Positions 6,968-62,551 of a DNA stretch of 64,000 nucleotides are shown in pieces. Positions within the stretch are counted from its first letter, which is position 1; each line of letters opens with the position of its first letter. The stretch covers positions 13,210 through 77,209 of the forward strand of contig CAZDOJ010000001.1 in assembly GCA_964507055.1 (NCBI GenBank). Direction: 5' to 3'. The notes under the pieces are model-generated. The model had not been told where the DNA came from and did no database searches. It saw nothing but the letters and a program-made list of their open reading frames with translations. The stretch comes from an uncultured Gammaproteobacteria bacterium. Lineage in GTDB: Bacteria; Patescibacteriota; Microgenomatia; Levybacterales; UBA12049. Made by a program: the position numbers and the translations under genes.

Positions 6968-6984
6968 AGTAGAGAAATAAATTT

Positions 6985-12544: not shown

Positions 12545-12555
12545 AAGAATAACAG

Positions 12556-14478: not shown

Positions 14479-14517
14479 TTCTTGATTCTTACTTCATAAT
14501 TCTTTATTCTATAACCT

Positions 14518-14973: not shown

Positions 14974-14982
14974 ACCTATTTT

Positions 14983-33346: not shown

Positions 33347-33679
33347 ATGGTTGAGTCAAGAAGAAGGAGTGAACCGCCTCAAAGAAGAGGTCCATGGCAA
33401 GAGCGTGCTGGCAATATATTGCGATCGGCACGAAATAAATTTTCTGGGGATGTTGGACGCCTAGAGCAGTGCCTCGTTCCTATAAATGATCCCATAACGC
33501 CTGAACCAAAGAATGTCTCCGGTCCAAGTGGATGTCTCATCGATAATTCAGGTAAAACTTCCGAAAGAACTCCACCTCCAGATCTGGGGATATCGATTTG
33601 GGAACAACCACTATCACAGGTTTTTAATATCTTTGATGGTAGCAATGATGGCCAGAGCGGTCCCAGAAGATCTTTATAA
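33347..33679 (+). CDS. Tag-bearing island protein 5 (a small 110-aa protein with a degenerate tag).
   Basis: It ends 'NIFDGSNDGQSGPRRSL' (Trp is missing). It starts 'MVES' from the conserved 'TATAAT-N7-ATGGTTGAG' arrangement. Confidence 0.5.
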   Translation: MVESRRRSEPPQRRGPWQERAGNILRSARNKFSGDVGRLEQCLVPINDPITPEPKNVSGPSGCLIDNSGKTSERTPPPDLGISIWEQPLSQVFNIFDGSNDGQSGPRRSL

Positions 33680-33754: not shown

Positions 33755-35056
33755 ATGTTTAAAGAGAGAGAAAATCGCTTAACCTCAACAAACAAAAAAA
33801 CTCCAATCCGAGATCGAATCGCTTCTCGCGTAGAACAAGCAGTTGATCAAGTAAGGGCAAAAAGAGATTCTCTTGTAGATAGTGCAGTCGTATTTGCTCA
33901 CACATCTCTTGTCGTGGGGGCAGTTACAAAGAATATGCTTCTTCATTCGGATGTTCCTGGTCAAGAGCCTGAACATCGTGAAAAAAAGGAAGTTTCTGAT
34001 ATCGAAAAAGCAATGCAGTTTGCTGAGATAATTCAGGGTCATGAAGTAACTACACGCTATGCAACTGGAACATATCCATTTATCTCTGCTCGTAAAGGAG
34101 CACCGCGTACAGAAATACAATTTGAGGAAAATTCATATGAGAATCATCCGCCGACATTTAGAATAGGGATTCAATTTGAAAAACATAATGGTCATATGCA
34201 GGCAATAGGTGGCATGCGTATCAGAGAAGATGAAGGTGGACAAGTACGAGAGAGTGGAGATTTATCATTACTCTTTGGCAGAGAAGAGGATCCTTCAAAT
34301 CCACCGCCATATATATACCAAGGTTCTGGACTTGAGCGAGAATTAGAATGGATAGCAGCAGATGAATTTAGAACAAGTGCAGGGCATGATATTATGGGGG
34401 AATTCGAAGTTGTAGCAGCACTTAAAAAAACTCAGGAAGGAATGGGAGATGCCTGGCCTCAAGAATTTGTATTACCTGAAGAATCAGAAGAGTTAGGTTC
34501 AACGTCTACTAGCACATTAGATACATTTAAAGCACTTACAAGGACTTTGTCAGCTAAGAATATTGTGATTCATACTTCCTGGGACGAGGACAACATATCT
34601 TACTCACTCAGTACTCATACTTCAACAGAGAACCCCTCAAAAGTTGTAATCAGAAAAACTATTAAAACATTAACTGATGATGGAGTTATCCTCAATGAAA
34701 GTGAAGGTTTAGAAATGGAAGATGGGAATGCTCCAATACTGTCTCAACATAAAAATTATGATACAATCTCCCTTCTTCGCGTGAGAGATCAAGAAGTCAG
34801 GGCTCGCTTGGAAGCAGAGAATGAACTCTACTACGAAGACATAAAGTCACTTATTGATAATGGAGGCTCGGTTGCAGATGCGTCAGCTGTTGCTCGTTTC
34901 CTTGCTCTTCTTGAAACGAAAGTACGCGATATCCAGACAGAGCGGCAAGCGATGCGTATTCTATTTCAACCTGGTTCTTTGGAAGCTGAGAATGAAGGCA
35001 TTGATTGGAATGGAGATACTGATCCCGACCAAGACGGTCCACCTAGGACCCTGTAA
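33755..35056 (+). CDS. Tag-bearing island protein 6 (family B).
   Basis: It ends 'EGIDWNGDTDPDQDGPPRTL'. Its N-terminus 'PIRDRIASRVEQAVDQVRAKRDSLVDSAVVFAHTSLVVGAVTKNMLLHSD' is paralogous to protein 8. It also has 'GMGDAWPQEFVLPEESEE'. Confidence 0.65.
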   Translation: MFKERENRLTSTNKKTPIRDRIASRVEQAVDQVRAKRDSLVDSAVVFAHTSLVVGAVTKNMLLHSDVPGQEPEHREKKEVSDIEKAMQFAEIIQGHEVTTRYATGTYPFISARKGAPRTEIQFEENSYENHPPTFRIGIQFEKHNGHMQAIGGMRIREDEGGQVRESGDLSLLFGREEDPSNPPPYIYQGSGLERELEWIAADEFRTSAGHDIMGEFEVVAALKKTQEGMGDAWPQEFVLPEESEELGSTSTSTLDTFKALTRTLSAKNIVIHTSWDEDNISYSLSTHTSTENPSKVVIRKTIKTLTDDGVILNESEGLEMEDGNAPILSQHKNYDTISLLRVRDQEVRARLEAENELYYEDIKSLIDNGGSVADASAVARFLALLETKVRDIQTERQAMRILFQPGSLEAENEGIDWNGDTDPDQDGPPRTL

Positions 35057-36347: not shown

Positions 36348-37661
36348 ATGTCAAGACCCGAGCAAGAATCACAAGGTTTAGAACGGAAAAGACCAATAAG
36401 AGACCGTCTTAAAAATACGGTTTCAGGAATTGCGGAAAAAGGAAGAGGTTTGAAAGATTATGCTGTCGTATTTTCGCGTACAGCTCTTACTGTAGGTTTG
36501 CTTACACGCCACACATTACTTCATAGTTCTGATCGTCCTGATGGCGGATCAGAAAAGCGACCAGAAGCTTTATCCTACGCAGACCAAGCCAGACTATTAG
36601 CCGAACAAATTCACGCAAATGATCCTGTAATGACAGAATCGAATTTGGCATTCTATCCAGCAGCAGCTGTTACTGACGGTGATTATCAAATTGGTGTATC
36701 ATTCTATTCTGAGCCTTCTGCAGAAGAGGATTCAGGATCAATTTCTGTGACAATTGCTTTGGGAGCAGATCGTCCTTTGCCAGAGCGTGAATTACGATTT
36801 GATCCAGATGGAAGGTTAGAATTAGTTAATCATGGGGAATTACGAGATGCTTTAAATCGAAGAGATGAATCTGCAGAATTACAAACAGATTCTCTAACCG
36901 GAGAAGTGACACTTGAAGTTCCAGATGATGTCGATGATGCAGCTTTTCGTGAATACGCAGCAGCGTCTTCAGATAGGATACTCACCAATAATGAAGCACT
37001 CGTATATTTAGGATTTATAAAAGAACAAGTAGGCGATCGGTGGCCAGAAGATTTGGTATTACCTGATGTAACCGAGGATGGAGATTTTCCTGAAGCAATT
37101 GATGATACAAAAAGGCTGTTTACTCGAATTGCTGCTCGATTAGCGGCTCCACGTCCCGAATCAGCTGATGATCCACTATCGCCTAAGTTTGAACGAGTAA
37201 GAACAACCGAATGGATTATCTCTGAAGGCCATCGAGCAGTTCTTGATACACATACGAATGGGAATGGTGAGGTCGACGAAGTTCACCTAAAAACATATGA
37301 GAATGTTCCTACAGAATTTGGTTTTAGCTACGATGAAAGAAAGAAAGTGACTCTTCGGCCAGGAGACACAGAATATGAAGAATCAGTATATGTACATCCT
37401 GCTGACGTCTTTCATCTTACTGAAGCAAATCGAGAAGTGGCAATGGAATTAATGCAGTCATCAAGAAGAATTAGAAATCGAGAAGAACATGATCCTGCTA
37501 CAACGACTCAAATCGGGGAAGTATTTACAGTATTACAGTCCAAAGTTACGAGTTTGCGTGAACAACCTCGTCTTGATGACAATATTGATATAGAAGAACA
37601 AAATGGACATATTGATTGGGATGGACCAGATGATGATAGTGGTCCAAGAAGATCTTTGTAA
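36348..37661 (+). CDS. Tag-bearing island protein 8 (family B).
   Basis: It ends 'GHIDWDGPDDDSGPRRSL'. Its N-terminus 'PIRDRLKNTVSGIAEKGRGLKDYAVVFSRTALTVGLLTRHTLLHSS' is paralogous to protein 6. It also has 'QVGDRWPEDLVLPDVTEDG'. A 'TGTTACAAT' box lies 9 nt before the ATG. Confidence 0.65.
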   Translation: MSRPEQESQGLERKRPIRDRLKNTVSGIAEKGRGLKDYAVVFSRTALTVGLLTRHTLLHSSDRPDGGSEKRPEALSYADQARLLAEQIHANDPVMTESNLAFYPAAAVTDGDYQIGVSFYSEPSAEEDSGSISVTIALGADRPLPERELRFDPDGRLELVNHGELRDALNRRDESAELQTDSLTGEVTLEVPDDVDDAAFREYAAASSDRILTNNEALVYLGFIKEQVGDRWPEDLVLPDVTEDGDFPEAIDDTKRLFTRIAARLAAPRPESADDPLSPKFERVRTTEWIISEGHRAVLDTHTNGNGEVDEVHLKTYENVPTEFGFSYDERKKVTLRPGDTEYEESVYVHPADVFHLTEANREVAMELMQSSRRIRNREEHDPATTTQIGEVFTVLQSKVTSLREQPRLDDNIDIEEQNGHIDWDGPDDDSGPRRSL

Positions 37662-38846: not shown

Positions 38847-39899
38847 ATGGTAGAAGCATACAGAAATAATAAGGAGCGTAATAAAAAACCTTTCACTATG
38901 GTACTTCTTGATCACGGTGCTGCTCGTCCTTCCGAAATAGCAGTTTGGAAAAATCATATTGTGACCCTTCTCAATAGAGATCCTTCTCATCATGGGAAAA
39001 TAGTAGTCTTCACAGAAAATGCTGCCGGCACAATCAGCAACGCTAATCGTGTGCAAAATAAAATTCGTAACGGGAAACTACCTACAAAAGCTTCCATTGA
39101 AGCAGGCCTTGAAGAGATTGCCGCAGCTGGAAGAATATTAAATGTTCCTGAAGCAGAAGCACACGCTATCGCACAAGAGGGACTTGAAGAAGGATTTGAT
39201 GGTGCAATTTTTCCCATACTTGATGATCTTCACCGGGAGCATGGAGAAAGAGTCGTTTGGATAGATGAAGCACATCCTTTATCAACGCATGAGAAAGGTA
39301 TAGCCTTCTTGGATACTGGATTTTTTATAGATCCTCCTTACGGGACGACTTCTCAATCCGAAATTGCTGATTGGTATCGTGAGAATTTTCGAAAAAACTC
39401 AGAATTTGATAGAGAGCGAGAAAATAATATAAGCCAAGCTTTGGCTGAACAGCTCGATGATCCCAATATTATTGGTGGCGTCGGGGTGATGGGATATTTC
39501 CATACCCGCGTTGTTCATAATTTGGCACGAAATGGCTATGCGGCTCGCAATGTTTTTCCAGAAAGAGAAGGAAGAAACTTTCACTTTAGTCCTAATACCT
39601 ATCTGCATAGAATGATTCATTTCTTTCCAGATCGTCAAATTACCGATGCAGATGTCCAAGATGCTTTAAGTGTAGGTCAATATACTGGGACTTTACTAAG
39701 AAGTGAAGGACGTGATCCTGCGACATTGAGTATTCAAGAAAGAAACAAAGTAGGCAATGAAATTTTGCATATCAGAGGGAAAGCACGTCAACGAGAGCTT
39801 CAGATATTTGATTCATCAGAAGCACTTGGAGATCATAATGATGAAATTGATTGGGCTGGGAATGATGAGCCTGATGAGGGACCTAAAAGGTCTCTTTAA
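38847..39899 (+). CDS. Tag-bearing island protein 10 (family A, 'VVFTENA'/'GWVGAxHTG' family).
   Basis: It ends 'DEIDWAGNDEPDEGPKRSL'. The start was set at the 'ATGGTAGAA' (MVEA...) conserved among family starts, 1 nt after the upstream stop (TAAtATG). The family motifs 'KKPFTMVLLDHG', 'GKIVVFTENAAG' and 'GGVGVMGYFHTRVVHNLARNGY' are present. Confidence 0.6.
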   Translation: MVEAYRNNKERNKKPFTMVLLDHGAARPSEIAVWKNHIVTLLNRDPSHHGKIVVFTENAAGTISNANRVQNKIRNGKLPTKASIEAGLEEIAAAGRILNVPEAEAHAIAQEGLEEGFDGAIFPILDDLHREHGERVVWIDEAHPLSTHEKGIAFLDTGFFIDPPYGTTSQSEIADWYRENFRKNSEFDRERENNISQALAEQLDDPNIIGGVGVMGYFHTRVVHNLARNGYAARNVFPEREGRNFHFSPNTYLHRMIHFFPDRQITDADVQDALSVGQYTGTLLRSEGRDPATLSIQERNKVGNEILHIRGKARQRELQIFDSSEALGDHNDEIDWAGNDEPDEGPKRSL

Positions 39900-39960
39900 T
39901 GGCCTATAATAGTTTTATTTTTAATCATTTCATGGTATAATCCCAAAAGACAAGCCATCC

Positions 39961-41019
39961 TTGTCCCATTTTTTTATGAATAATATTGAAGGTGCTCCCA
40001 AGAAAAGAGTAGAACATCGTGAGGTGGATCCACGAAAAAAACCTATTGATCTTTTCTTTTTACCTCATCATGAGGATATGTATCACGTGCTTGATCCATG
40101 GGAAGAAAAAATACGTAATACACTCGCAGAAAAACCTACCGGCAAACTTGTTGTTTTTACAGAACTAGCAACTGGACGAAGAGATATGAGCGATCGTGTA
40201 CGTGGGCTTGTATCCAATGGTGTTTCTCCCAGTGACGCATATGCACAAGCAATAATATCACGGTTGCGTGAAGCTGGAGATGACGGTACAGATAGTGAAC
40301 TTGAAAATATTGCGTTACGAAGTCTCTCTGGATTTGTAGGAGAATCATCCATGAGACTTGACGGAATTGTCCGTGATTTTCCTGGAAGGATAGACTGGAT
40401 AATTGAAGGTCGTCGCGATGATCAAGAATTACCTGAAGATGACGAAGATGTAAAGGCTGCGTACACATTTCTGACGACAAGAGTTGATGGAGTTCCTAGT
40501 GACGACCATATTGATATTTATCGAGAATCACTTGCAACAATTTCCCATAGCGATCGTGTGCGGGATCGGTATATCGCGGAGCAAATTGCAGAGACACTTG
40601 AAAATCCTGATACTATTGGTGTTGCTGGGTGGGTGGGCACCAAACACACAGCAATCAGTCATAAATTAAAAGCAGACGGCTATACAATTAATCGAACATT
40701 TCCACAGTTAGAGGATGGAGTATTGGTATTTGCACCGATAACAACTCTTATACGAGAAGCCGAGTATCATCCAAGGAGAGAAATTCCCAAAGAAGATATT
40801 ATCGTGACAACCGCTCTTGCCAACCCAGTTTTTGATTTCGATCCGAATGCATCCGATCAGCAATTTTTTAAGAATGCACATACATGGATGACAGAGAAAA
40901 AAGCAGAACTCACGTTACAAGAAGAGCTTGGCAGTGATCAACCATTATCAGAAATTGATCCGTCCGTTAACTGGGATGGGACAGAGGATCCTGATTCCGG
41001 TCCACGTCAGAGCCTTTAA
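39961..41019 (+). CDS. Tag-bearing island protein 11 (family A).
   Basis: It ends 'PSVNWDGTEDPDSGPRQSL'. It has 'RKKPIDLFFLPHH', 'GKLVVFTELA' and 'GVAGWVGTKHTAISHKLKADGY'. Confidence 0.65.
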   Translation: MSHFFMNNIEGAPKKRVEHREVDPRKKPIDLFFLPHHEDMYHVLDPWEEKIRNTLAEKPTGKLVVFTELATGRRDMSDRVRGLVSNGVSPSDAYAQAIISRLREAGDDGTDSELENIALRSLSGFVGESSMRLDGIVRDFPGRIDWIIEGRRDDQELPEDDEDVKAAYTFLTTRVDGVPSDDHIDIYRESLATISHSDRVRDRYIAEQIAETLENPDTIGVAGWVGTKHTAISHKLKADGYTINRTFPQLEDGVLVFAPITTLIREAEYHPRREIPKEDIIVTTALANPVFDFDPNASDQQFFKNAHTWMTEKKAELTLQEELGSDQPLSEIDPSVNWDGTEDPDSGPRQSL

Positions 41020-41054
41020 TTGCTTTTTGTGCCCAATTTGTTACAATACCGCCT

Positions 41055-42089
41055 ATGTCACACTTTGAAAGAGAACCTATAAAAAGAACAGAACGACTTG
41101 ATCCAAGGCAGAAGCCGACGACACTTTTTTTTATCAACCATAATGAGGCTGATCATACGCCACTTGTACCTTGGAAAAATCACCTTGAAAACCGTTTGCA
41201 GGACTTACCGAAAGGGAAAAAGATTGCGGTATTCACTGAAAGTGTTATCACAAGTACTGAAGTCGCTCAAGCCACGCAGGAACGAGTTGCCGATGGTATG
41301 AGTCCAACTGAAGCATATGTACATTCTGTATATGATCAATTGCTTCCAGGTATGCCACGCACTGACAAAACTCTGGAGCTTGTACATGATCATGTCCGAG
41401 CTCAGAATTCTTTTATAGCAGCATCTCGGGATATACTTGATGAATTAGCCCAACGCTATCCCGGAATCCATTGGATTGAAGAATCACATGATGCAACAGA
41501 GCGTGACCGTATCGTAGAGAGTGCAAAAGATTTTTTTACCATGCTTGATGTTCGAACTGATCCTCAAAGCCAAACATTGGATGAAAAAAAAGAGGTGATA
41601 GAGAATTTTGGAGCAAGGCAGCAGATGCGTGATCAAAGCATTGCAGGACTTATTACTGGAGCACTTGAAGAAGATGATGTTGTAGAAAGTATTGGTTGGG
41701 TTGGAGCGGATCATACAGGTATTTCTCATGCTTTAGTGCGAGATGGATATACAGCAAATAGAGTCTTCCCACATAGGCAAGGAGGGACCTTCTATTTTGA
41801 ACCATTAACTACATTGTGGAAAACGGCAAACATTCGAGAACTTACCGATGAAGAAGTAGAAGTATCACTTCAAGCAGACCGAAACCTCGCAGTTCCATTG
41901 AGTGTTGGAAGACAAGCTGATATTCAAGCCGCACATCGGATGATTAAAGTAGCAACCCAGCTGAGACAGCGAAGTAATCAAAGGCAAGAACCACCATCAA
42001 TAGATTCAAGTGAAACTTCTTTGCCTCAAACTGCTATTGACTGGGCTAGTGAAGAAGAAGGTCCCACAGAACCACGAAGAACTTTATAG
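41055..42089 (+). CDS. Tag-bearing island protein 12 (family A).
   Basis: It ends 'TAIDWASEEEGPTEPRRTL'. It has 'RQKPTTLFFINHN', 'KKIAVFTESV' and 'SIGWVGADHTGISHALVRDGY'. A 'TGTTACAAT' box lies 7 nt before the ATG. Confidence 0.65.
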   Translation: MSHFEREPIKRTERLDPRQKPTTLFFINHNEADHTPLVPWKNHLENRLQDLPKGKKIAVFTESVITSTEVAQATQERVADGMSPTEAYVHSVYDQLLPGMPRTDKTLELVHDHVRAQNSFIAASRDILDELAQRYPGIHWIEESHDATERDRIVESAKDFFTMLDVRTDPQSQTLDEKKEVIENFGARQQMRDQSIAGLITGALEEDDVVESIGWVGADHTGISHALVRDGYTANRVFPHRQGGTFYFEPLTTLWKTANIRELTDEEVEVSLQADRNLAVPLSVGRQADIQAAHRMIKVATQLRQRSNQRQEPPSIDSSETSLPQTAIDWASEEEGPTEPRRTL

Positions 42090-42116
42090 TCAAAATGAAT
42101 TTGGTATAATCCCCAC

Positions 42117-43289
42117 ATGGTAGAACATGTTGATTCCTCTCGAACCGGAAAAAAACCACGCAAACCTTTTACACAATTTCTTGTCTCTCATAGTGACGAT
42201 AAACTTGATCAGCTCTCTGGATGGGCTAATGCACTTCAGCGATCGCTTGAAGAAAATCCAGATAAGAAAGTTGTAGTTTTTACAGAAAATGCTAAGGGAG
42301 TTAAAGCAGATTCAGAAAAACTAACAGAAAAGGTTCTGGAAGGTATGCTGCCATCTGATGCATATGCTGCTGTAGCAACAGAAAATATGAGTTCATACTT
42401 TGCAAAGAATAGTACTCGTGTAGGTGTTACAAGACAACGTCGGATTATTAAAAAAGAGGCAGAAAAAGCTAGAGATCAGATTGGAGGAGGATTTTTTGGT
42501 AGATCATTTCAACTTCTTGATGCTATTGCAGCTGAATATCCGGGCAGAATAGTATTCATAAGTGAATGGGAACCAGAGCTCGCAAATCAATTAGATACAC
42601 AACAGAAAACTCGAGAATTAGGTATCGGTTTTCGAAGAGAATTGGGATTGCAGACTCGGGCTGAAAAAGCTGCTTCTGCACGAGAGTTCTTTCTATTCCA
42701 GGCAGATAATGCAAATGCCAGAGAAGAGTCTGCTGCACAAGTTCTGACGGATGCCTTAGACCGCGATGACGTTGCTGCAGGAGTTGGCTGGATGGGAGCC
42801 GCACATACTGGACTTGTACATCGATTGCAGGCAAATCATGATGTACGCATGATTATGCCAGGAAAGGTTGGAAGAGATTTTGTATATACGCCTGAGAATG
42901 CACTTATTCGTGAACGACTATTTCATCCGGATCGTGATATTGATTTGGATGAAGCATACGAGGCTGTACAGATAGAAAGAAGAGTAAGAAGACAGTATCC
43001 AATTTTCCATTTGGGGATTGTTTTAGAAAGTAAATGGGGTATAAATCCATTTCATAATAAGCAGAGAAAAGCTGAAATTGATCAAGAAATTAGTAGAAGA
43101 GCTCAGGTTGAATTCCAAGCTTTTCGAGCAGGCCGAAATGAGTATGCCCAAGATCAAAACACAATAGTAGCTCTTCCCAATGCATCAGCGATTGTACAAG
43201 ACAATGAAGTGTCACTAAGAGATATGAACTCTGGTCTTGATTGGGATGGTTCAGACGGTCCAGATCAAGATTATCGAAAAACATTGTAA
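42117..43289 (+). CDS. Tag-bearing island protein 13 (family A).
   Basis: It ends 'SGLDWDGSDGPDQDYRKTL'. It has 'KKPRKPFTQFLVSHSD', 'KKVVVFTENA' and 'GVGWMGAAHTGLVHRLQANHD'. A 'TGGTATAAT' box lies 6 nt before 'ATGGTAGAA'. Confidence 0.65.
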   Translation: MVEHVDSSRTGKKPRKPFTQFLVSHSDDKLDQLSGWANALQRSLEENPDKKVVVFTENAKGVKADSEKLTEKVLEGMLPSDAYAAVATENMSSYFAKNSTRVGVTRQRRIIKKEAEKARDQIGGGFFGRSFQLLDAIAAEYPGRIVFISEWEPELANQLDTQQKTRELGIGFRRELGLQTRAEKAASAREFFLFQADNANAREESAAQVLTDALDRDDVAAGVGWMGAAHTGLVHRLQANHDVRMIMPGKVGRDFVYTPENALIRERLFHPDRDIDLDEAYEAVQIERRVRRQYPIFHLGIVLESKWGINPFHNKQRKAEIDQEISRRAQVEFQAFRAGRNEYAQDQNTIVALPNASAIVQDNEVSLRDMNSGLDWDGSDGPDQDYRKTL

Positions 43290-43319
43290 TTATTATTTAA
43301 AAAGAATATAATCCCGTCA

Positions 43320-44513
43320 ATGACTGAACGATCTGCAAAATCACCTGCTCAGGTGGAAGGGGCCGTGGCTCCAGATGGCAAGAAAAAACCTGTTTCCCTT
43401 TTCTTTGTTTCGCATCATCCTGCACAAGGATACCAGCTCGACGGATGGAGAAGAAAGATAGAAGATATCCTTGATTCTACTCCAAAAGGAAAAGTTGTAG
43501 TTTTTACAGAGAATGCTGGGCAAAGCCATAGGCATTCCAATCTTACTCGACAAAATGTTGCTAATGGTGATCTACCATCAGATGCCGTTGAAAAAAGTTT
43601 CCGAGAACTAAATGATCATTATCGAAGTCATGGGGTTGAATGGGCCTTGAGTGATGAGAGAGTAGCAGAACTTCTTGAGAAAGGAACAAAAACATTTACT
43701 GGCATATCGACAGCTATACTTGATGATATTGCTGCTCGTTATCCTGGAAGAATAGATCTCGTTGAGGAATGGGAAAGTCGCAAAGGACATCAACTTGAAC
43801 ATGATCTCTACAAAAAGGATACTCCTCAGCGAAATACAACCCTAAGTGCTGTTATGTCTTTATTTCCTCAAGGACGTAGAATTTTGGCTGCTGAGGGTCG
43901 AGAAAAATTGGCATCCGAAGCTGCAATATACCGTGAACGTGAGGAAACATCTGCACGAATTATTAGTGATGCATTAGAACAACCCGATACTATTGCGGCG
44001 GTTGGCTGGATGGGTGCAATACATACTGGACTGAGCCATGAGCTCACTCGAGAGGGTCATCCAGTAATGCGTGTATTTCCAGAGCGAGTAGATGGAGAGC
44101 CATATCTTTTTCCGCCAGGACATACGCTCCTTCGTGCCAAGCGTTTTGATCCGGATAAAGAATTAACTGATGATGAGATCGTAACGGCTGAGCAGGCTGA
44201 TCTGAAGGGAATGCATAAACAATTTGGTGATCCACGGATCAATCCAATTGGTTTTTTTATGCGGTATAAGTCTCAAAAAGAAGAAGTACGCTCAGGAAAA
44301 GCACAGGCTTCTATTCGATATGCTCAAGAATGGTATAGACGAAAAATGGGCAAACAGGCATCAAATGAAGAGCAAGTAAGTACAAATAGACAACTTCAAG
44401 AATCAGTTACGGTTGCCCCAGATATAGCAGAGCCCCCACTTGGCGATCTGAATTCCGATATAGATTGGGGAGAGTCTGGACCCGATGCAAATGGACCAAA
44501 ACGGTCACTCTAA
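43320..44513 (+). CDS. Tag-bearing island protein 14 (family A).
   Basis: It ends 'SDIDWGESGPDANGPKRSL'. It has 'KKKPVSLFFVSHH', 'GKVVVFTENA' and 'AVGWMGAIHTGLSHELTREGH'. Confidence 0.65.
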   Translation: MTERSAKSPAQVEGAVAPDGKKKPVSLFFVSHHPAQGYQLDGWRRKIEDILDSTPKGKVVVFTENAGQSHRHSNLTRQNVANGDLPSDAVEKSFRELNDHYRSHGVEWALSDERVAELLEKGTKTFTGISTAILDDIAARYPGRIDLVEEWESRKGHQLEHDLYKKDTPQRNTTLSAVMSLFPQGRRILAAEGREKLASEAAIYREREETSARIISDALEQPDTIAAVGWMGAIHTGLSHELTREGHPVMRVFPERVDGEPYLFPPGHTLLRAKRFDPDKELTDDEIVTAEQADLKGMHKQFGDPRINPIGFFMRYKSQKEEVRSGKAQASIRYAQEWYRRKMGKQASNEEQVSTNRQLQESVTVAPDIAEPPLGDLNSDIDWGESGPDANGPKRSL

Positions 44514-44556: not shown

Positions 44557-46401
44557 ATGGTAGAACAATCAAGAAGAATTGCACCACAGGGAAGTCGTAC
44601 TTTTCGTGGTACAGATGTGTCCGCAATGCATGCAGAAATGCAAGGTATCCTTACGGCTTCGAGAGATAATGATCCGCATGCCTCCACAATAGACTCATAT
44701 AGAAAGATTGCTGATGCACTTCCTCTACGGGTTCCAGCTGCTACATACCAAGCCGTTAGTGAATCTATCAATAATCCTGATCCCGTGATTTCAAAAGCTG
44801 GGAAGGAAGTTTTTACTTGGCTAAATATAAAGACTGTAATTTCAGTTGCAGAAAGATATTCGGGAGAAGGTTTGGGAGATGTTGAAGATTTCGCTCAGGA
44901 AGGGGTTACTATCCTTTATGAAAATGTAGACACAATTCATCAGAGGGCAGATAGTTCTATGTATACTTATCGTTTGGCTGAAGAGGCTCTGACTAATAGT
45001 ATTGCTCGTGAGCATGGATTTAGTGTTACTATGAGCGAAAATAGAGTTGCATTACCTATTGGTCAGACCGTGACTGAATTATTTGATAATGCTCCCTTAG
45101 GGGTTGATGAAGTAGGGCTTGAAAGGCAAGCAGTAGTATTAGCACAGAAATTTGGAATTACTGAAGATGCTGCATTTAAATATCTCTCAAGGAGGAGTGC
45201 ATTGCAGCCAATTCACGAAAGTAAGATGCAGCCAGAACGTGAGGATACAGAGGTAATAGAAGATATTATGGTTTTAGATGAGCTTCTGAGGATGCTTCCT
45301 GAAAGGAATGAACAAATGCTGCGGATGAGATTTGGGAATGGTTTTACACTAGATGAAATTGCCCAACGCTACAACCTGGTTCCTGAACGTGCTCGTCAAA
45401 TAATTGCTAAAACAATTAAATCATTACAGCATGAGCAAGTTATCGATTTTGTTACAGGGGGAGTTAAACCCGCATCTCGAAGTCAGCGAATAATGACATC
45501 AGATGGAGAAGAGGGGCAGGATATTGAAGATGTCATCCGCGAAAAGCGTTTGGCTGGATATGGTGAATCTGGATCAGGTTCGTGGGCTGAATCTAGAAAG
45601 GAATTGGCTAATATTGCACATGCATTCTTAGCTGAGCCGCAAATTGGGTATCCGGAAATTGCAAATAGGCTTGGAATTACAGTAGATAAAGTAATTTATA
45701 GTGTACAAACTCTTCGTTCAAAATATTTGTTACCAGATGCTAATGCAGGTAAGCATGCAAAAATAACTCCCGATGATGGCAACAGAACATTGCAGGAAAG
45801 ACTACATTCACGATATGAAAGACAAGAATCCGAGATTGTAGTTCCGCCAATTCAGGGGGAAAGAGAAACAAGTACTATCCCAGCAATTGAGGACACTTCT
45901 TCTAAATCGAAACCACCATCAGAAAGAACACTTCGTGCTTTAATTTTGCAAAAACAAGCGTGGAAGTTACAGCAAGAAGACGGAAAAACGTACGATGAGA
46001 TTTCTGAAATACTCAATGTTAGTCTAGGATCCATACGAAGATATCTTCAAAACGAACGGCGAGACCTTGGTCTTGCAAATCAGACGAATGTCGGACGTCC
46101 TAAAGATCCTGAGGTGCAAGCTAGAAGAGCCGTTTTGGCTGAGAGAATTAAAGCTGGTGAGCCTCTTAGAGTTCATGGATTTGCTAAAGAGTTTGGTACT
46201 ACTGTAGGTACTATAAATTTTGATATACGTGAAATTTTGAGTGGATATCATACTTCTTCATCAGAGACAACAATATTTTCTCAAGAAGAACATGCTTCGC
46301 AACAGCCTAAACTTGAGGAGCCAGAGGTTACGATCGCTGATGTAGCTGTCGATTGGGATGGTACCGATGATCCTGAAGCAGGTCCTCAACGAACTTTATA
46401 A
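44557..46401 (+). CDS. Tag-bearing island protein 15. It is a sigma-70-family-like protein (regions 2 and 4) with a roughly 330-aa C-terminal extension that contains an extra HTH.
   Basis: The region-2-like segment is 'ISVAERYSGEGLGDVEDFAQEGVTILYENVDTIH...SMYTYRLAEEALTNSIAR'. The region-4-like segment is 'LDELLRMLPERNEQMLRMRFGNGFTLDEIAQRYNLVPERARQIIAKTIKSL'. The extra HTH is 'KTYDEISEILNVSLGSIRRYL'. It ends 'VAVDWDGTDDPEAGPQRTL'. A 'TGTTATAAT' box lies 6 nt before 'ATGGTAGAA'. Confidence 0.65.
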   Translation: MVEQSRRIAPQGSRTFRGTDVSAMHAEMQGILTASRDNDPHASTIDSYRKIADALPLRVPAATYQAVSESINNPDPVISKAGKEVFTWLNIKTVISVAERYSGEGLGDVEDFAQEGVTILYENVDTIHQRADSSMYTYRLAEEALTNSIAREHGFSVTMSENRVALPIGQTVTELFDNAPLGVDEVGLERQAVVLAQKFGITEDAAFKYLSRRSALQPIHESKMQPEREDTEVIEDIMVLDELLRMLPERNEQMLRMRFGNGFTLDEIAQRYNLVPERARQIIAKTIKSLQHEQVIDFVTGGVKPASRSQRIMTSDGEEGQDIEDVIREKRLAGYGESGSGSWAESRKELANIAHAFLAEPQIGYPEIANRLGITVDKVIYSVQTLRSKYLLPDANAGKHAKITPDDGNRTLQERLHSRYERQESEIVVPPIQGERETSTIPAIEDTSSKSKPPSERTLRALILQKQAWKLQQEDGKTYDEISEILNVSLGSIRRYLQNERRDLGLANQTNVGRPKDPEVQARRAVLAERIKAGEPLRVHGFAKEFGTTVGTINFDIREILSGYHTSSSETTIFSQEEHASQQPKLEEPEVTIADVAVDWDGTDDPEAGPQRTL

Positions 46402-48737: not shown

Positions 48738-50768
48738 ATGAAAGAACTACTCAGAGCGAGAAAATCATTTTTGAGAGGAGAACCCCTCCGTCATAATCCT
48801 GGTGATGATGATCGGACCCAGGATAAATTTGCTAACGTACCACATGGTGGTCCCCAAAAAGAAGGAAGATTACCAGGAGAAAGAATTAGTGATCAACAGC
48901 GTGATGAGGTGCTATCCGGAGTTCTCAATAGTGAAGTAAAGATGCTCGTTTTGGCGGGAATGGTTCTGGACCCTGAAGTATACACTGCTGGAGATCTCGA
49001 TAGTATGATACGGGATATGCAACGTGGACAAAAAGGTTGGAATTTAAGTAGCAACATAGCATTCGGGTACTGTCTCAATTCTTTCGATGGGATTGGACTA
49101 GTCGCAAAAAGTGAACCTGTAAACGATCGGACGACCTTGGGATTTAAAGCAACACAAAGAGGCAAAGACACGTTACCAGTTATTGGACATCTCTTGGATT
49201 TCTCACTGAAACATCCAGATATAGCTTTGCGGCGTGTCTTTTCAACAACTGCTTCTCCTTCAAAGGCCACGGCTGAAGGCGAACAAGCTGGAGACTATAA
49301 AGTCCGTGCTCCCAAAAGACGATTTCGTATTCTTAAAGCACTCGTCGAGAACGAGGGGCCACTACGTGAGTCAGATATGCGAAAGCTTGTAAATAATTCA
49401 TCTGTTGAGTTGCATCTGGAAAGCCTTCATAACATTGGGCTTATAACTTATGAGAACACAAGAGTTGGTGCAGATCATATCACCTATACAGTTATTCCAG
49501 ATGCTATCTCTGATGTTCATGCTCTGCCTTCTATTCCAACGTCAACCGATAACCAGCTGCAATTACGTGCAGCATATATTACCTCAAAACTTTCGGGTGA
49601 AATTTCTCCAAAAGATGTATATGAACGATTAGTCGCTTTATTCCCACAATATAAAGAACGGGATCCTCGTGGTACAGAAAAGGTAATAAATAGAAAGCTC
49701 CATCACATGTCAATGCATGGATTTATAGAAAAAGGGAAACGCACAATAGACCGAAAAACAGATATCTCAGTAACTGAAGAACAGCGAGAAACTATAGCTG
49801 AGATCGTGGGAATTATTGATGCATTTCAGGCAGGAGATCCGACATTCTTAGCAGAAGGAGAACAGAAAGCTCGACGAATTATCCAAAATCCTGAGGCAGC
49901 AGCTACTCTTATGCGTAAGGCTCAGGAAAGTTCGCATACAGCTCTTGCTCTTGGTCAAGCAGAATTGAAGAGAAGATTAGTGACTTTTGCTGAACAAAGC
50001 GAAGGTCCGATAACAAGTGTGCTTGCTGCTGAATATCTGGAGCATCGTGTGGGTAAAAGTTATGCTGGTGCGATATTACGAGAACTTGCAAGAGAAGGAA
50101 AGATACAGGTTGAATCACGGGGTCAAGTTATAAGATATGGTCCTGTCGCTCCGCAGGAACAAGAGATCCCTTTGCCTGAAGATAAGCGAGGTTTAGAACA
50201 AGTTGCAGTTACGGTAAATGCGGAGATTAAGCCATTTGCTGATGGTATCAAGTTGCTTCTTGCTGCATATGCTTCACATACCGATCCTCAGTCAGAATCA
50301 GCTCTTGAAGTAATGGATCAAATTCGTTCTGTACGAGCACTGCCTGAATATGCACATCTCATTTCGAAACGTGATCAGATAGAACAACGGCTTGCTGTTA
50401 TTGCATCAGAAGAGGCTGGTATCGAGTTAGCGAATGAAGAACCCGTTGTAGAAACAGAAGTTGAGATGCAAGAAAATACGGAGGTTGTTCTGAAACCCCA
50501 AAATAGTCCAAAATCGAAGACAGTTGAGCTTCGTGAGCGAATTCAAGCCTTTAAGGATTTAGGAGTATCTGATTCTAGCGAAATTGCACAATGGATGGGT
50601 GTAAGTAGATCTACCATCACAAGACATATTCGGCAGATGCAAGCACAAGAAACACAAGAAGAACCCATACTTCCTGCAGTTGAAGATCAGCCATTAAGTG
50701 CATTAGATGCTGGGATTGATTGGAGTGGAGATGATGATCCTGATCCCGGTTTACAAAGAACACTTTAG
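48738..50768 (+). CDS. Tag-bearing island protein 17 (family C). It is a DNA-binding-like protein with a winged-helix-like segment and a C-terminal HTH.
   Basis: It ends 'AGIDWSGDDDPDPGLQRTL'. The N-terminal roughly 130 aa are paralogous to protein 18 ('...VLNSEVKMLVLAGMVLDPEVYTAGDL...GYCLNSFDGIGLVAKSE'). It has 'RRFRILKALVENEGPLRESDMRKLV' and the HTH 'SEIAQWMGVSRSTITRHIRQM'. Confidence 0.65.
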   Translation: MKELLRARKSFLRGEPLRHNPGDDDRTQDKFANVPHGGPQKEGRLPGERISDQQRDEVLSGVLNSEVKMLVLAGMVLDPEVYTAGDLDSMIRDMQRGQKGWNLSSNIAFGYCLNSFDGIGLVAKSEPVNDRTTLGFKATQRGKDTLPVIGHLLDFSLKHPDIALRRVFSTTASPSKATAEGEQAGDYKVRAPKRRFRILKALVENEGPLRESDMRKLVNNSSVELHLESLHNIGLITYENTRVGADHITYTVIPDAISDVHALPSIPTSTDNQLQLRAAYITSKLSGEISPKDVYERLVALFPQYKERDPRGTEKVINRKLHHMSMHGFIEKGKRTIDRKTDISVTEEQRETIAEIVGIIDAFQAGDPTFLAEGEQKARRIIQNPEAAATLMRKAQESSHTALALGQAELKRRLVTFAEQSEGPITSVLAAEYLEHRVGKSYAGAILRELAREGKIQVESRGQVIRYGPVAPQEQEIPLPEDKRGLEQVAVTVNAEIKPFADGIKLLLAAYASHTDPQSESALEVMDQIRSVRALPEYAHLISKRDQIEQRLAVIASEEAGIELANEEPVVETEVEMQENTEVVLKPQNSPKSKTVELRERIQAFKDLGVSDSSEIAQWMGVSRSTITRHIRQMQAQETQEEPILPAVEDQPLSALDAGIDWSGDDDPDPGLQRTL

Positions 50769-50810: not shown

Positions 50811-53528
50811 ATGAAAGAACGATTTCGAGAAAGACGTATACAAAGGGAGGTTTTACGACATCATCCTGATCCGGGCGAACAGGATAAATTTTCGCAAGGT
50901 GGAGCACATCCTGAAGTTCCTGGTGAACGGAGAGAAAGAGTATCGACACAGAAGATTGATGAACTCCTGGCAGGAGTGTTTAATAATGAATCCAAGATGA
51001 TTGTCCTTGGTGGGATGATCCTCAATCCTCACTGGTATTCAGATCAGCAGCTTCATGATATGACAATGCGGATGCAACGAGGAGAGCGAGGATGGGGCAT
51101 TGGAAATCACATTCCCTTTGGTTACTGTCAGGATTCTTTTGATGATATCGGACTTGTTGCAAAAAATGAAATCGATGGGGCTCGCGATAGTTTAAAATAT
51201 CATGTGACCCAAGATGGTATTAGTGCACTTCCTGCTATTGGTCATCTACTTTCGTTTGTTGAAGAATCAGGCATCTCTTTGCATAGAACTTTCTCAACAA
51301 CGAGTACTCCTTCTTCAGCAGCGAGTATTGATTCTGAGGAAGAACATAATGATGATCGTGACATACGAAAACGTGCACCAAAGACAAGGTATAGAATTTT
51401 TAAACAATTACTTGCTCATGAAGGACCAATACAAAAAGTTGATTTACAAGAAAATCTCAACGTGAATGGGAGTTCTCTCGGGCACCATTTAAGAAACCTC
51501 AGTATTGAAGGTATGCTTGACTATCAAAGCTATTATGATGGTGAACCACTCGCTGTTACATATCGCATCAATGCAGATGCTTTTCAAAAGATAAACTATG
51601 ATGATCTTCCACGAGATGCAAGATCAACGATTACAACGATTACGAGACGAGTTGCTTTTATTGCTGCTCATATGGAAGGGACTGTTACTCCTGCTAAAGT
51701 GCATGAAAAATTGCTTGCTCTGTATCCTCAATATGCAGAGAGAACTGAGGGTCATGTTCGAAGCAGCGTGAATCGTGCCTTAACGCATCTTGCAAAACAT
51801 GAGTATCTACAGCGAGGAGAGATCTCTGCAGATCGTCCTTCATTAATCTCTTTAACTGATGAGCAGCGAGAAAGAATGCAACAACTTGTAACGATCATCG
51901 ATACATTCCAATCAGGTGATCCCGAATTCTTAGCACAAGGTGAGCAAAAAGCCCGCGAAATTTTAAATGATCCTCAAAGAGTAGCACGATTAATGAGACA
52001 CGCACAAGAAAATTCTAGAATAGCATTAGCTTTGGGGCCTGCGGAGTTAAAACAGATGATCATCGAAATCATTAAAGATAGTGACACACCATTATCCGGA
52101 GCGAGAATTGTGCCGTTGATGGACCATCGGATTGGACAGCCGTATGCAACAGCTTTATTAAAGCAATTATATGATGGTGGTGAAATAGCCTTGGTAAGTG
52201 AAGGAAGATCAAAATGGTATGGAAAACTTCAAGAAACAGGAGGTGTTGACGCATTACCCGAAGATAGAGATGGGTTAAGATCATCACTGCAACAAGTTAC
52301 TGCTGAATTTCAGCCATACGAAAATGGCCTGGGGCTTTTATTTGCTGCTTTAGACACGCATGATCCAGCGTCAGCAGATGCCCGAGAGGTTTTAAATCAG
52401 ATTGAATATGTCCGCATGGATCCTGAATATCGAAGACTTAAAGGTAGAATCGACACTATACAAGATAGGCTGGAGAGTTTCGCTGATGAAATTGAAGATG
52501 AAGCAGTTGCGGACGAAACTCAGGTTAGAAAAAGAACACCACGCCAAAGTTCGGTCGTCATTCGCCAACGGATAGATGCTTTTAGGGATTTAGGGATTAC
52601 CAATCAAAGCGAAATTGCACGTTGGATGGGCTTCTCTCCTGATAGTTTGAAATATCATTTCCAGTCGATGGACGATACGCTTAATAGAGCAATATCTCCT
52701 GAGCGAATGGCAAAAATTGATATATCCAGAGCATTGCGTGATCAGGATCAATTAACTCCCGCACAAATTGCAGAACGGATGGGTACCACTGAGAGTACAG
52801 CTCGTGCATATCTCGAACTTGCAGATGATGCTGAAAGGCTTGCAAATCAACGCGAAGTAACTTCTCCTTATCAAGATCGCCTTGTTAGAGTCCGCGAAAT
52901 GGAAGAAGAGTGGGGTGACATGATGCAAGTTACACCGATGGTTCATCAAATGGCTGCGGAGTTAGGCCTATCTGTTGCATCGATCCATAATTATCGAAGA
53001 GAACTTTTTGCGACACGTGCTCGAGCAGCAAGAGTACGGGAAGGCCAAATAGAACAGGTCCGAGCGATGACTGAAGAGTTACAGCAGCTTCCTAACCAAG
53101 AACGTGTATTAGTGATTGCTGAAAGACTAGGATTAAATCGATCAACTGTATATCGCTTTCAAGATAAAGCATTTGGAGTTGCAGAGCAAAGAAAAGTAGG
53201 AATTGCTGAGCGACGTGCACGGGTTGCCCAGCGTTCAGAAGAGCTTCGTGCAATGGGAATCCCTATAAAAGAAGCTGCAAAAGTTATTGCTGAAGAAGAA
53301 GGTGTCTCTCCTGGGACGATAATGTTGGACAGAAGAGCTTTATTACAATCACAGCGAGAAGCCACACAAGCAGAAAATCTATCATCTTCTGTAGAAGAAA
53401 CCATTGTTTATGAGGCAGATCATAGCTTGCCTGATCTTTCGTCAGAGCAATCATTAAATACCTTCAATGAAACAATTGACTGGTCTGGTGAAGATGATCC
53501 GGATATTGGACAACACAGGACACTTTAG
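50811..53528 (+). CDS. Tag-bearing island protein 18 (family C). It is a 905-aa protein with five tandem HTH-like repeats.
   Basis: It ends 'ETIDWSGEDDPDIGQHRTL'. The repeated HTHs are 'SEIARWMGFSPDSLKYHFQSM', 'QIAERMGTTESTARAYLELA', 'QMAAELGLSVASIHNYRREL', 'VIAERLGLNRSTVYRFQDKA' and 'KVIAEEEGVSPGTIMLDRRAL'. Confidence 0.65.
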   Translation: MKERFRERRIQREVLRHHPDPGEQDKFSQGGAHPEVPGERRERVSTQKIDELLAGVFNNESKMIVLGGMILNPHWYSDQQLHDMTMRMQRGERGWGIGNHIPFGYCQDSFDDIGLVAKNEIDGARDSLKYHVTQDGISALPAIGHLLSFVEESGISLHRTFSTTSTPSSAASIDSEEEHNDDRDIRKRAPKTRYRIFKQLLAHEGPIQKVDLQENLNVNGSSLGHHLRNLSIEGMLDYQSYYDGEPLAVTYRINADAFQKINYDDLPRDARSTITTITRRVAFIAAHMEGTVTPAKVHEKLLALYPQYAERTEGHVRSSVNRALTHLAKHEYLQRGEISADRPSLISLTDEQRERMQQLVTIIDTFQSGDPEFLAQGEQKAREILNDPQRVARLMRHAQENSRIALALGPAELKQMIIEIIKDSDTPLSGARIVPLMDHRIGQPYATALLKQLYDGGEIALVSEGRSKWYGKLQETGGVDALPEDRDGLRSSLQQVTAEFQPYENGLGLLFAALDTHDPASADAREVLNQIEYVRMDPEYRRLKGRIDTIQDRLESFADEIEDEAVADETQVRKRTPRQSSVVIRQRIDAFRDLGITNQSEIARWMGFSPDSLKYHFQSMDDTLNRAISPERMAKIDISRALRDQDQLTPAQIAERMGTTESTARAYLELADDAERLANQREVTSPYQDRLVRVREMEEEWGDMMQVTPMVHQMAAELGLSVASIHNYRRELFATRARAARVREGQIEQVRAMTEELQQLPNQERVLVIAERLGLNRSTVYRFQDKAFGVAEQRKVGIAERRARVAQRSEELRAMGIPIKEAAKVIAEEEGVSPGTIMLDRRALLQSQREATQAENLSSSVEETIVYEADHSLPDLSSEQSLNTFNETIDWSGEDDPDIGQHRTL

Positions 53529-61700: not shown

Positions 61701-62551
61701 CGTTGCATTTCATCTTCTGGAAGTGCAATTTCATCAGCAGTAGTTTCTTCAGCACCAGAAGGGTATGAAGGTGGTATCTTTCTATCTTCGACGGGAGCAC
61801 CTTCGGCTGAAACAGTTTGTTTCTGTGTTCCAGTTGTTTGTTCTTCTGAGCCGACTTTTTCAGTAACAGGAGCTTCTGTTGTCGAAATATCTTCTGTGCG
61901 GATTGTAGTTTGCAGGCCTGTATCTATCGTTGCTTGCTGATCTGTATCATCCGTAGATTCTCTACTACTGGAACCTGTTTGATGATCACTTCCTGTAGTA
62001 TCCTGCTCTGTGTCTGAACGATCATTCCCATGTGCATCGTCCTGACTAGATGTATCTTGTCTATCTGTCTGTTGGCTGTCTTCATTCGCTGTTTCTTGTT
62101 GTTCGGTTCTGACCTGATTTCTTTCAGTTTCTATTTGTGGTTGCTGAGGAACTTCATCACGAATAAAGGCTTGTTGTGTAAGAATACCTGCTCGTATATT
62201 AGATATTGGGTCTCGATCTCGTCCTAAGTAATTCTCATTTAAATTGGTCTGTAATTCTCCCGGGTTAGTTTGTGCAATGTCATACAGAGCAGATCCAATT
62301 TGATCAACTGTTTCTATTTCTGGGTTTCCAGTTAGTGTCCGAGCAATGTCTACATATGCAGCTTTAAGTGGAGCTTCTGCTCGTATAATTTGTTCTGCTG
62401 AGGGCCTATCTTTTCCGATAGATTTTGTGGCTTGTCTGCGAATATCTCCCAATACGAAAGAATTAATCCGTGCAATCCCAGCAGTTCTTGGATCAACTGC
62501 TTGATCTTTATGTTCATCTCCTGGTCTGCCAATTGGCCTTTCTGCTGCCAT
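58799..62551 (-). CDS. VirD4/TraG-like type IV coupling protein (T4CP)-family P-loop ATPase. It is atypical: it has no TM helices and carries a 650-aa acidic low-complexity N-terminal extension.
   Basis: The Walker A region is 'GLVVGPTGQGKSESIIVPNIL', compared with the VirD4 pattern 'GPTRSGKGVG.VIPNLL'. The downstream segment is 'GDVYRWDPLD....RWNPLE', compared with the VirD4 pattern 'v.fDP......fNPL'. The Walker-B-like segment is 'MLGALDELPHIAPI', compared with 'LLDEF..LG'. 'RKRWQQYLGAIQ' and the C-terminal 'EDITRLPDFTGIVALKNGRPIFV' are also present. A 'TGTTATAAT' box lies about 30 nt upstream on the minus strand. Confidence 0.7.
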   Translation of the reverse strand: MAAERPIGRPGDEHKDQAVDPRTAGIARINSFVLGDIRRQATKSIGKDRPSAEQIIRAEAPLKAAYVDIARTLTGNPEIETVDQIGSALYDIAQTNPGELQTNLNENYLGRDRDPISNIRAGILTQQAFIRDEVPQQPQIETERNQVRTEQQETANEDSQQTDRQDTSSQDDAHGNDRSDTEQDTTGSDHQTGSSSRESTDDTDQQATIDTGLQTTIRTEDISTTEAPVTEKVGSEEQTTGTQKQTVSAEGAPVEDRKIPPSYPSGAEETTADEIALPEDEMQRDLKSLTETEKKVLGNVLIKYIDYQLIERLSDLPVEAIPEEIRTQVQRQNAAFTILAHIETDLTGLTERLKEKSGPLTQKEWETLEFGIRLTQNSTTKDLQGTVTKVNQDPSLPNIEELPDLDLFAADVQKELQKVGSRMEAPATQVVKDYNEKWREISENAIKRSTEEGTYFETKVNEHTTIRLWSGGEKAETVEVHWTERRSIPNARLVVHEGNLIIVPAGEDLSTLTPDKIRGTIPLDGTPNIPVEEQTEKLKFVNGVLVVPATGKEPAHPDNAKPVVTEASTNPTRREPQHLRTRVIPRPERMPDIDGPTRITEQTEFRSQSEIMRAMRDGVDFVVQQMIDDTRAMRRRSRRGDPEYGWPTRREMSRQDYFASRNIDKLGDRIIWGRSSGRLIAGGEGGHGLVVGPTGQGKSESIIVPNILARRGLVISTAVGSEIWKKTEGWARSHGDVYRWDPLDTSGEGTHRWNPLEHTRTWSESMKIANELISGISKGNDSDSNMDYWHSQARMLMTPLLYINGRYNMESPRHMGHVLEAAQRFTIKGQLSPLPKLAGFCVWQEGEARRIIAEGAAYGDQEKIREGLALRSDSVQAWNALLDLKEGLRTGAENARSAITMARQALEPWTDPKVQDATKVHEIDPNTMYSDDTFENRPSLYMMAHESDQERYRGLFLAHLMTHFRAHGENSERRGVEGLPMGPRMLGALDELPHIAPIRNYDQFLALSRKRWQQYLGAIQDGGQARRIWTQDGYVTVRSNSHGGRLLLPNLDDKATVDEFSAYFGQHTRTVTKESKATTPAHRTPRSTTTTRGKGGEISRTTNPSQRIPEITVTTKTDEDVREPIVRPEDITRLPDFTGIVALKNGRPIFVELVTAKQIEALRPRLGPKPRGELARRPDSFVIEGETVKPTQNITPTDKQVLGGQTTAIEPKPRPELDAPLTMEQEVELYNEMEKKNEKGKDDGPPKLGK

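Follow-up and report, generated by a model that had tools for sequence, protein, structure and literature searches.

Family A is a group of seven related genes in a 64,000-nucleotide stretch of contig CAZDOJ010000001.1 (this whole stretch is hereafter the window), from a bacterium of the candidate phyla radiation (CPR), or Patescibacteria. On balance, its products are probably secreted, Tiki-like hydrolase effectors whose C-terminal tail acts as an export signal. The most telling feature is that tail, which is common to the family and to ~25 unrelated neighbouring genes, and which was absent from a preliminary description of the family. It is accompanied by a conserved set of putative catalytic residues, a remote homology to the Tiki/TraB/GumN/ChaN superfamily, the adjacency of a VirD4/TraG-like coupling protein of the T4SS (type IV secretion system) class, and a swapping of tails between lineages.

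Family A genes and their products

The list of open reading frames (ORFs) and MAFFT alignments define an N-terminal domain of ~270-280 residues common to seven genes of the window, with identities of 21-34%; invariant columns are the K of KKP, the H of LFFxSH, the E of VVFTE, the E of ypgri.wi.E, and the G..G..H of GWvGAxHTG. Two further copies lie past the window end on the same contig, the continuation of which is denoted L006, giving a genome total of nine.

38847-39899, + strand: family A paralogue 1, 350 aa, hydrolase-like domain and C-terminal tail IDWAGNDEPDEGPKRSL (family-profile hmmsearch, 1e-70)
39961-41019, + strand: family A paralogue 2, 352 aa, tail VNWDGTEDPDSGPRQSL (family-profile hmmsearch, 1e-81)
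41055-42089, + strand: family A paralogue 3, 344 aa, the modelled copy, tail IDWASEEEGPTEPRRTL (AlphaFold2 model m3d88fcfcd6cc)
42117-43289, + strand: family A paralogue 4, 390 aa, tail LDWDGSDGPDQDYRKTL (family-profile hmmsearch, 2e-72)
43320-44513, + strand: family A paralogue 5, 397 aa (P0001), tail IDWGESGPDANGPKRSL (family-profile hmmsearch, 1e-75)
53577-56027, + strand: family A paralogue 6, 816 aa (P0005), tail IDWGGEGDPDLGAHKSL (family-profile hmmsearch, 6e-65)
62698-64000, + strand, cut by the window end: family A paralogue 7, full product 527 aa (P0002), tail IDWAGENDPDTGPRRTL (ORF list and hmmsearch)
L006:8813-9889: family A copy 8
L006:10001-11128: family A copy 9

An alternative start of paralogue 1 at 38784, upstream of that given, overlaps the preceding gene, and the 38847 start agrees with the MVE... 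starts of its paralogues; the public gene call for paralogue 2 (P0004) is 347 aa, and the true start is perhaps five codons downstream. In paralogue 6 the family A domain occupies residues 1-300 (53577-54476), followed by an extension of ~500 residues and then the tail; residues 300-816 gave no family match, the only hits being faint ones to a decapeptide repeat and to the DotG/IcmE repeat region. Paralogue 7 heads the genes that diverge from the coupling protein.

A search through 1.84 billion proteins with a profile built on the seven copies brought up 218 cluster representatives at E≤1e-3, of which 47 had E<1e-30, and by these scores the resemblance is far beyond chance. With identities of 20-33%, the copies are old and not recently duplicated. 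Synonymous sites among the nine paralogues are saturated (pS 0.63-0.78, dN 0.8-1.2), so that dN/dS is uninformative, and the diversifying selection suggested in the preliminary description is not supported; the catalytic columns are strongly constrained, and the helical inserts and linkers differ in sequence and length. The short motifs of the preliminary description hold as invariant alignment columns, and all seven window ORFs that it had called tandem paralogues do carry the domain, although only five stand in strict tandem and the genome holds nine.

Conserved residues and predicted active site

Across an alignment of 130 sequences (residues numbered on the protein of the 41055 gene, paralogue 3), E143 and R192 never change, and conservation is at least 90% at H29, E62, G217 and H220. 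All nine genome copies retain the H, E, E, R and G-x-x-H, in keeping with the earlier suggestion that the conserved residues form an enzymatic site.

41139-41714, + strand: predicted active-site span of paralogue 3 (conservation in 130 homologues and model)
41139-41141, + strand: H29
41238-41240, + strand: E62
41481-41483, + strand: E143
41628-41630, + strand: R192
41703-41714, + strand: G217-x-x-H220

The AlphaFold2 model of paralogue 3 (pLDDT 89.6, pTM 0.84) is built of five beta-alpha units, with H29, E62, E143 and H220 standing directly after strands b1-b4. Sanchez-Pulido and Ponting reportedly described, in 2013, a pair of widely spaced G-x-x-H motifs in the Tiki superfamily. The second motif of family A, G-A-x-H, shows almost no variation; for the first, the wider family has G-x-H and the window copies have x-S/N-H. 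Active TIKI enzymes have as their hallmarks a 2His/2Glu site and a five-strand parallel core (PMC6254334), and by position after the modelled core strands the 2His/2Glu set of the superfamily appears to be present in family A. As this catalytic set is kept in full, the family A proteins are most probably active hydrolases, whether peptidases or esterases.

Probable relationship to the Tiki/TraB/GumN/ChaN superfamily

Foldseek comparison of the paralogue 3 model with the Protein Data Bank (PDB) returned only one high-probability match, ChaN 2g5g (probability 0.97, E 0.065, 242 aligned columns), with TM-scores of 0.35 and 0.44, and comparison with BFVD returned one significant match, a Marseillevirus TraB family protein (E 7.5e-4, probability 1.00). 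For profile-profile comparison, 9-13 diverse TraB/GumN proteins were taken from plasmid records. Local hhalign of the 130-sequence family profile gave a probability of 79% against nine of these sequences (P 1.6e-5, score 43.3, 80 columns) and of 74% against thirteen (P 2.9e-5, score 42); reversed profiles scored 13, and 60 block-shuffled templates reached a maximum of 27.1, with a median of 20.4. The alignment pairs R-E with R-N, VG..GA.H with VGALH, and L...GY.V with L...GY.V; in global mode, the histidine after b1 falls on the TraB GSIH motif, and the glutamate after b2 on the VEAD motif.

No PF01963 match was found in the 130 members at E≤0.01, and a single member of the 130 gave a weak match to Cofac_haem_bdg, the Pfam model for the ChaN family of the Tiki superfamily. 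Since PF01963 goes unmatched and the only link is the profile-profile alignment over 80 C-terminal residues, family A is very probably a new family inside the Tiki/TraB superfamily and not a member of PF01963 or PF04187. The superfamily, which also takes in PrgY and the erythromycin esterases, is already known; family A is uncurated and unnamed in the sources consulted.

Family A and the TraB/PrgY/GumN proteins (PF01963; E. coli YbaP, Enterococcus PrgY, Xanthomonas GumN) have the same order of motifs on the same structural elements, namely strand-His, strand-Glu, strand-Glu, R(N/E) helix, strand-G-A-x-H and L...GY.V. Family A differs in its first motif (G-x-H, not G-[ST]-x-H), in its much longer helical inserts, in having no signal peptide or membrane anchor, and in its fusion to a lineage-specific C-terminal tail, with an expansion to nine copies alongside a coupling protein. 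ChaN of Campylobacter jejuni (PDB 2G5G, PF04187, Tiki superfamily), the best PDB fold match of the 41055 protein model, is a haem-binding lipoprotein, whereas family A has no lipobox and keeps the full 2His/2Glu/Arg set. Translocated Tiki-fold domains have been described in RRSP of MARTX toxins, the type III effector HopBA1, and PMT C1/C2 (PMC6254334), and provide a precedent for a host-directed endopeptidase of the Tiki-fold 2His/2Glu type with appended targeting modules. Other systems deliver these domains; family A consists of a single domain followed by a short C-terminal tail, and a CPR bacterium presumably has another prokaryote for its host. The likeness is not one of detected sequence similarity.

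A common C-terminal tail across a gene island

The family A genes belong to an island of consecutive genes whose products, for the most part unrelated, end in the same tail. Past 58797 the island continues through the 62698 gene and, beyond the window, 12 genes of L006 (L006:85-17125), to ~79.8 kb in window coordinates, making at least 34 consecutive tailed genes (33 large and one small ORF) over ~55 kb, or ~4% of the 1.32-Mb chromosome. The sole untailed gene inside it is that of the coupling protein, at 58799-62551.

24938-58797: window part of the tail island, 21 consecutive ORFs with the common tail (20 of at least 340 aa and the small ORF 33347-33679)
27053-28978, + strand: flavin adenine dinucleotide (FAD)/pyridine-nucleotide-disulphide oxidoreductase-like protein, tailed (Pyr_redox_3, 3.8e-10)
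33347-33679, + strand: small ORF, 110 aa, ending ...DGQSGPRRSL, inside an apparent 456-bp gap (tail)
44557-46401, + strand: sigma-70-like protein (Sigma70_r2 and two r4 regions), tailed (Pfam)
48738-50768 and 50811-53528, + strand: two paralogous multi-helix-turn-helix (HTH)/winged-helix proteins, tailed (Pfam)

The tail consensus is (P/S)L..(D/N)..[IV]DW.G..DPD.GP.[RK][ST]L-COOH, with W at position -17 in 20 of 33 proteins, L as the last residue in 32 of 33, and S or T before it in 31 of 33. Conservation acts at the protein level, given that the tail-coding DNA (the last 51 nucleotides) is only 48% identical on average, and 39% at third codon positions; on the same figures, an origin of the tails by gene conversion or as a DNA repeat was rejected. 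A hydropathy scan found neither a signal peptide nor a transmembrane (TM) segment in any tail-bearing island protein, and all are acidic. A C-terminal sequence common to unrelated cargo that lacks Sec signals and TM segments, as expected of T4SS substrates, is present on 34 consecutive genes.

Many of the remaining cargoes are orphan proteins, and the sigma-70-like product of 44557 could be a secreted transcription factor. A sortase or PEP-CTERM-type sorting signal was rejected, the tail having no hydrophobic helix, as were toxin-immunity pairs, there being no small untailed genes between the cargo genes.

Further observations concern individual island genes. The N-terminus of the 33347-33679 product, MVESRRRSEPPQRRGPW, resembles a tailed 107-aa ORF on a further contig (L101:3416-3739). 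The N-termini of the products of 33755-35056 and 36348-37661 (both + strand) appear paralogous by eye, with KKTPIRDRI...AVVFAHTSLVVG...LLHS in one and RKRPIRDRL...AVVFSRTALTVG...LLHS in the other, and the pair would be a second expanded cargo family of the island. In the intergenic regions of 27000-56100, a TAYAMT box (-10-like, often TGnTATAAT) ends 3-12 nucleotides before the start of 12 of 22 island genes, as against 3 of 25 upstream housekeeping genes, and a Shine-Dalgarno-like sequence precedes none of the 22 and five of the 25; boxes so close to the starts, with no Shine-Dalgarno-like sequence, suggest that island genes are individually promoted and give leaderless mRNAs.

The coupling protein and equivalent arrays in other organisms

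The untailed gene encodes the ATPase around which the island is arranged.

58799-62551, - strand: VirD4/TraG-like type IV coupling protein, 1250 aa, Walker A GPTGQGKS (Pfam)

It matches T4SS-DNA_transf (5.4e-29), TraG-D_C (9e-10) and TrwB_AAD_bind (9e-9), and features a hydrophilic N-terminal extension of ~650 residues; no TM-like segment was detected in the protein (maximum 19-residue hydropathy 1.34). A type VII secretion (EssC) system was rejected, as the ATPase matches TraG/VirD4 and not FtsK/EssC models. The effector reading of the preliminary description is supported in so far as family A has an effector-like setting, beside a T4SS coupling protein in a CPR genome.

A second organism, from another metagenome, offers an equivalent array on the contig of the homologue P0008 (L096), where at least 14 genes, all on one strand, run divergently from a gene for a coupling protein of 1350 aa; four of them are of family A and one (14018-15598) is sigma-like. 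All 14 end in a different tail, EPE(I/V)G.S...SI..QE...(K/R)GK(S/T)K. Beside the coupling protein the two organisms have orthologous genes, paralogue 7 and its L096 counterpart being 45% identical over 480 residues, and their alignment ends exactly where the differing tails start. The tail thus differs together with the system, with a coupling protein of its own in L096 and, on orthologous cargo, a tail of its own.

On a third contig (L101) four of five genes, including a family A fusion, end in the IDW-type tail, and the contig of P0009 shows a matching gene order of HTH proteins, family A, sigma-like protein and a long convergent gene. Further tails in other lineages end ...DRDDR and ...PEI(D/E)E, and at least four tail classes occur among the 150 homologues listed, with many others tail-less. 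A family A protein query against the contigs of the GTDB representatives scanned gave no match, so that neither this genome nor its family A relatives are among them.

Separate observations were made on individual homologues. The product of L096:4606-6297 is a weak family A member (E 2e-17) in which the six conserved residues are replaced by R, P, D, Q, A and N; it is likely a pseudoenzyme, and the L096-type tail is still present. On the P0009 contig, family A is preceded by a pair of 672 and 668 aa (weak MarR_2 match), similar to the multi-HTH pair of the window. The family A domain also lies inside giant multidomain proteins of metagenomic origin, P0137 (1611 aa) and P0033 (2358 aa), one of which has N-terminal GNAT acetyltransferase domains.

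Genomic setting

The island is flanked upstream by a thymidylate (dTMP)-synthesis cluster, rpsB-tsf-frr, zwf-gnd and proS, and downstream by rpsU, ybeY and dnaX, and neither GC content (0.41-0.43) nor GC skew shows a break between the island and the housekeeping genes on its flanks. The closest serine hydroxymethyltransferase (SHMT) sequences identify the organism as a Microgenomatia-type CPR bacterium, with identities of 74-79% to Levyibacteriota, ~70% to Curtiss-, Davies- and Woykebacteria, and 90% to the 1.61-Mb chromosome OZ246394.1.

Within the upstream flank, the dTMP-synthesis cluster (4950-11525, + strand) includes thyA, folA and glyA, and has both its dCTP deaminase-like gene (4950, 6985) and its thymidylate kinase gene (5601, 6278) in duplicate. 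Surface-type proteins with VWA-domain and SdrD_B/CarboxypepD_reg regions (582-4812 and 11594-13407, both - strand) adjoin the housekeeping genes, and a Hint-domain protein lies at 12556-13407 (- strand).

A proposed mechanism of tail-directed export

The substrates of type IV secretion systems as a rule carry C-terminal, hydrophilic, charge-patterned signals that are read by VirD4-type proteins. In the scheme proposed here, family A would be a cargo module among many, every one of them carrying a fused C-terminal tail that is short and acidic; the VirD4-like coupling ATPase would read the tail and pass its bearers on to the type IV secretion machinery, by which they would enter the host cell, where the family A enzymes may cleave host proteins or esters. 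The predicted fold places a His after strand 1, a Glu after strand 2, a Glu after strand 3, an Arg in the long helix before strand 4, and G-x-x-H after strand 4, and this 2His/2Glu(+Arg) site would activate a water molecule for the cleavage of a peptide or ester bond. The helical inserts that lie between strands 2-3 and 3-4 are variable and may set substrate choice, giving the nine copies different specificities; such variation is our proposal for why nine old, divergent, catalytically intact copies are kept up.

Comparable C-terminal signals are the XVIPCD of Xanthomonas and Stenotrophomonas, the acidic E-block of Legionella Dot/Icm substrates, and the positively charged tails of Agrobacterium and Bartonella effectors, which likewise stand at the C-terminus of unrelated cargo without Sec signals. 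They have in common with the island tail an acidic stretch followed by basic residues, and genes clustered with a VirD4-type coupling protein. The island tail is, however, a sharply defined 17-25 residues with an invariant W, GP and terminal [RK][ST]L, whereas the XVIPCD measures ~120 aa and the signals of Dot/Icm and VirB substrates amount to loose biases in composition. The island differs further from known T4SS effectors in having no adjacent immunity genes and in its monoderm CPR setting, and the role of its tail is a predicted one. The CPR T4SS is essential for epibiotic growth in one genetically studied species.

Alternative explanations

Several observations weigh against tail-directed export of Tiki-like hydrolases, and they fall on both the enzyme and its delivery. 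Where the enzyme is concerned, no Pfam match above threshold was obtained for six window proteins or the 130 aligned members, NCBIfam gave no match to family A, and a profile search of PDB sequences returned only spurious matches to designed PPR/TPR repeats. The hhalign signal is confined to the C-terminal 80 residues, with the N-terminal half alone at P 0.48, and comparison with a single YbaP sequence and with a shallow enterobacterial YbaP profile found nothing; a search with YbaP had returned only close relatives, at ≥59% identity. TM-scores of the two supporting fold matches are low (0.31-0.45), and Foldseek comparison of a second model (pLDDT 93.4), that of P0056, a compact homologue, with the PDB gave no Tiki-superfamily structure, nor anything informative. 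Such results would suit a Tiki/TraB likeness that is convergent or spurious, family A then being a new alpha/beta hydrolase-like fold of its own; we consider this very improbable, given that three independent lines agree (the controlled profile-profile comparison and the top Foldseek matches in the PDB and in BFVD) and that five motifs recur in unchanged order and on matching secondary-structure elements. The statement in the preliminary description that no known family could be assigned is accurate for curated and PDB sequence families, but the fold is no orphan, with ties to the Tiki/TraB/GumN/ChaN superfamily, and hidden Markov model (HMM) and Foldseek searches placed it in no well-known housekeeping family. 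A first motif of G-x-H or x-x-H, in place of the canonical G-x-x-H, is a further difficulty for the superfamily link. Alternatively, family A might be a non-catalytic ligand binder akin to ChaN or to the inactive PMT C1/C2 domains, as ChaN is the best PDB fold match, PMT demonstrates that Tiki-fold proteins can be without activity (PMC6254334), and one L096 member has lost every conserved residue; every one of the nine copies, and at least 90% of 130 homologues, nevertheless keep the H, E, E, R and G..H, as active members do, and no lipoprotein signal is present, so that this explanation is highly improbable.

Where delivery is concerned, the window contains no VirB4 or channel genes, the coupling protein is without the usual N-terminal TM helices, which is unusual for type IV coupling proteins, and the coupling protein is dispensable in Southlakia, the one genetically studied CPR species. 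Most homologues, many of 280-340 aa, are tail-less single genes in ordinary contexts; the family A domain alone is consequently not an effector marker, but an old, widespread enzyme that was recruited and expanded as cargo by a few CPR lineages. A Tiki-like hydrolase might accordingly work in or on the CPR cell, with the tail as a docking, assembly or turnover tag (a degron, or a means of scaffold or surface binding). This would accommodate the missing channel genes, the tail-less homologues that exist as ordinary genes, and a coupling protein without a TM segment, perhaps exapted, as has been discussed for CPR, and it gains from export being an inference. A tag of this kind is nonetheless unlikely when the tail is limited to one contiguous block around the coupling protein, when the equivalent block of another organism bears a different tail beside its own coupling protein, and when the cargoes are as extremely heterogeneous as sigma-like, HTH, oxidoreductase and hydrolase proteins, a pattern of an effector repertoire and not of the clients of one scaffold. 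That the island is instead the cargo of an integrated conjugative or mobile element, its tailed proteins being transferred together with DNA for anti-defence or establishment, is improbable. The primary role of VirD4-type coupling proteins is in conjugation, relatives of TraB/PrgY are found on conjugative plasmids, and DNA-binding and sigma-like proteins are frequent among plasmid establishment genes, yet no relaxase, integrase, tRNA flank or repeat boundary was seen, GC content and skew run on into the flanks, these consist of housekeeping genes (proS, rpsU, ybeY, dnaX), and CPR T4SS loci are in general described as lacking conjugation components.

Significance

Secretion of family A as Tiki-like effectors by way of the tail would follow a general logic, a C-terminal signal and a coupling protein, that is already known. 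A wider claim is conceivable, though we place it somewhat short of probable, namely that the island tail and its counterparts (EPEIG...QE...GKSK, ...DRDDR and ...PEI(D/E)E) are lineage-specific recognition signals for coupling proteins, and that they define the first Patescibacterial T4SS effector repertoire, of at least 34 proteins and ~4% of the genome, in which nine host-directed Tiki-like proteases would act alongside secreted sigma-like and HTH proteins that reprogramme host transcription. A literature search, itself incomplete, found no report of CPR T4SS substrates or signals, and an earlier description is possible; a 2025 review on the Patescibacteria T4SS speculates on 'exchange of signals or uptake of molecules'.

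Family A brings ~200 sequence clusters into the Tiki/TraB superfamily as a new family that is so far uncurated and, as the most expanded cargo class and a predicted hydrolase whose putative active site is mapped out, may give a biochemical handle on the manipulation of a host by an ultra-small symbiont. The tailed proteins would be the first concrete candidates for what CPR bacteria inject into their hosts, and the tail offers a sequence rule with which candidate T4SS substrates can be listed in CPR genomes; if the tail is a signal, the question of what the essential Patescibacterial T4SS moves becomes directly testable.

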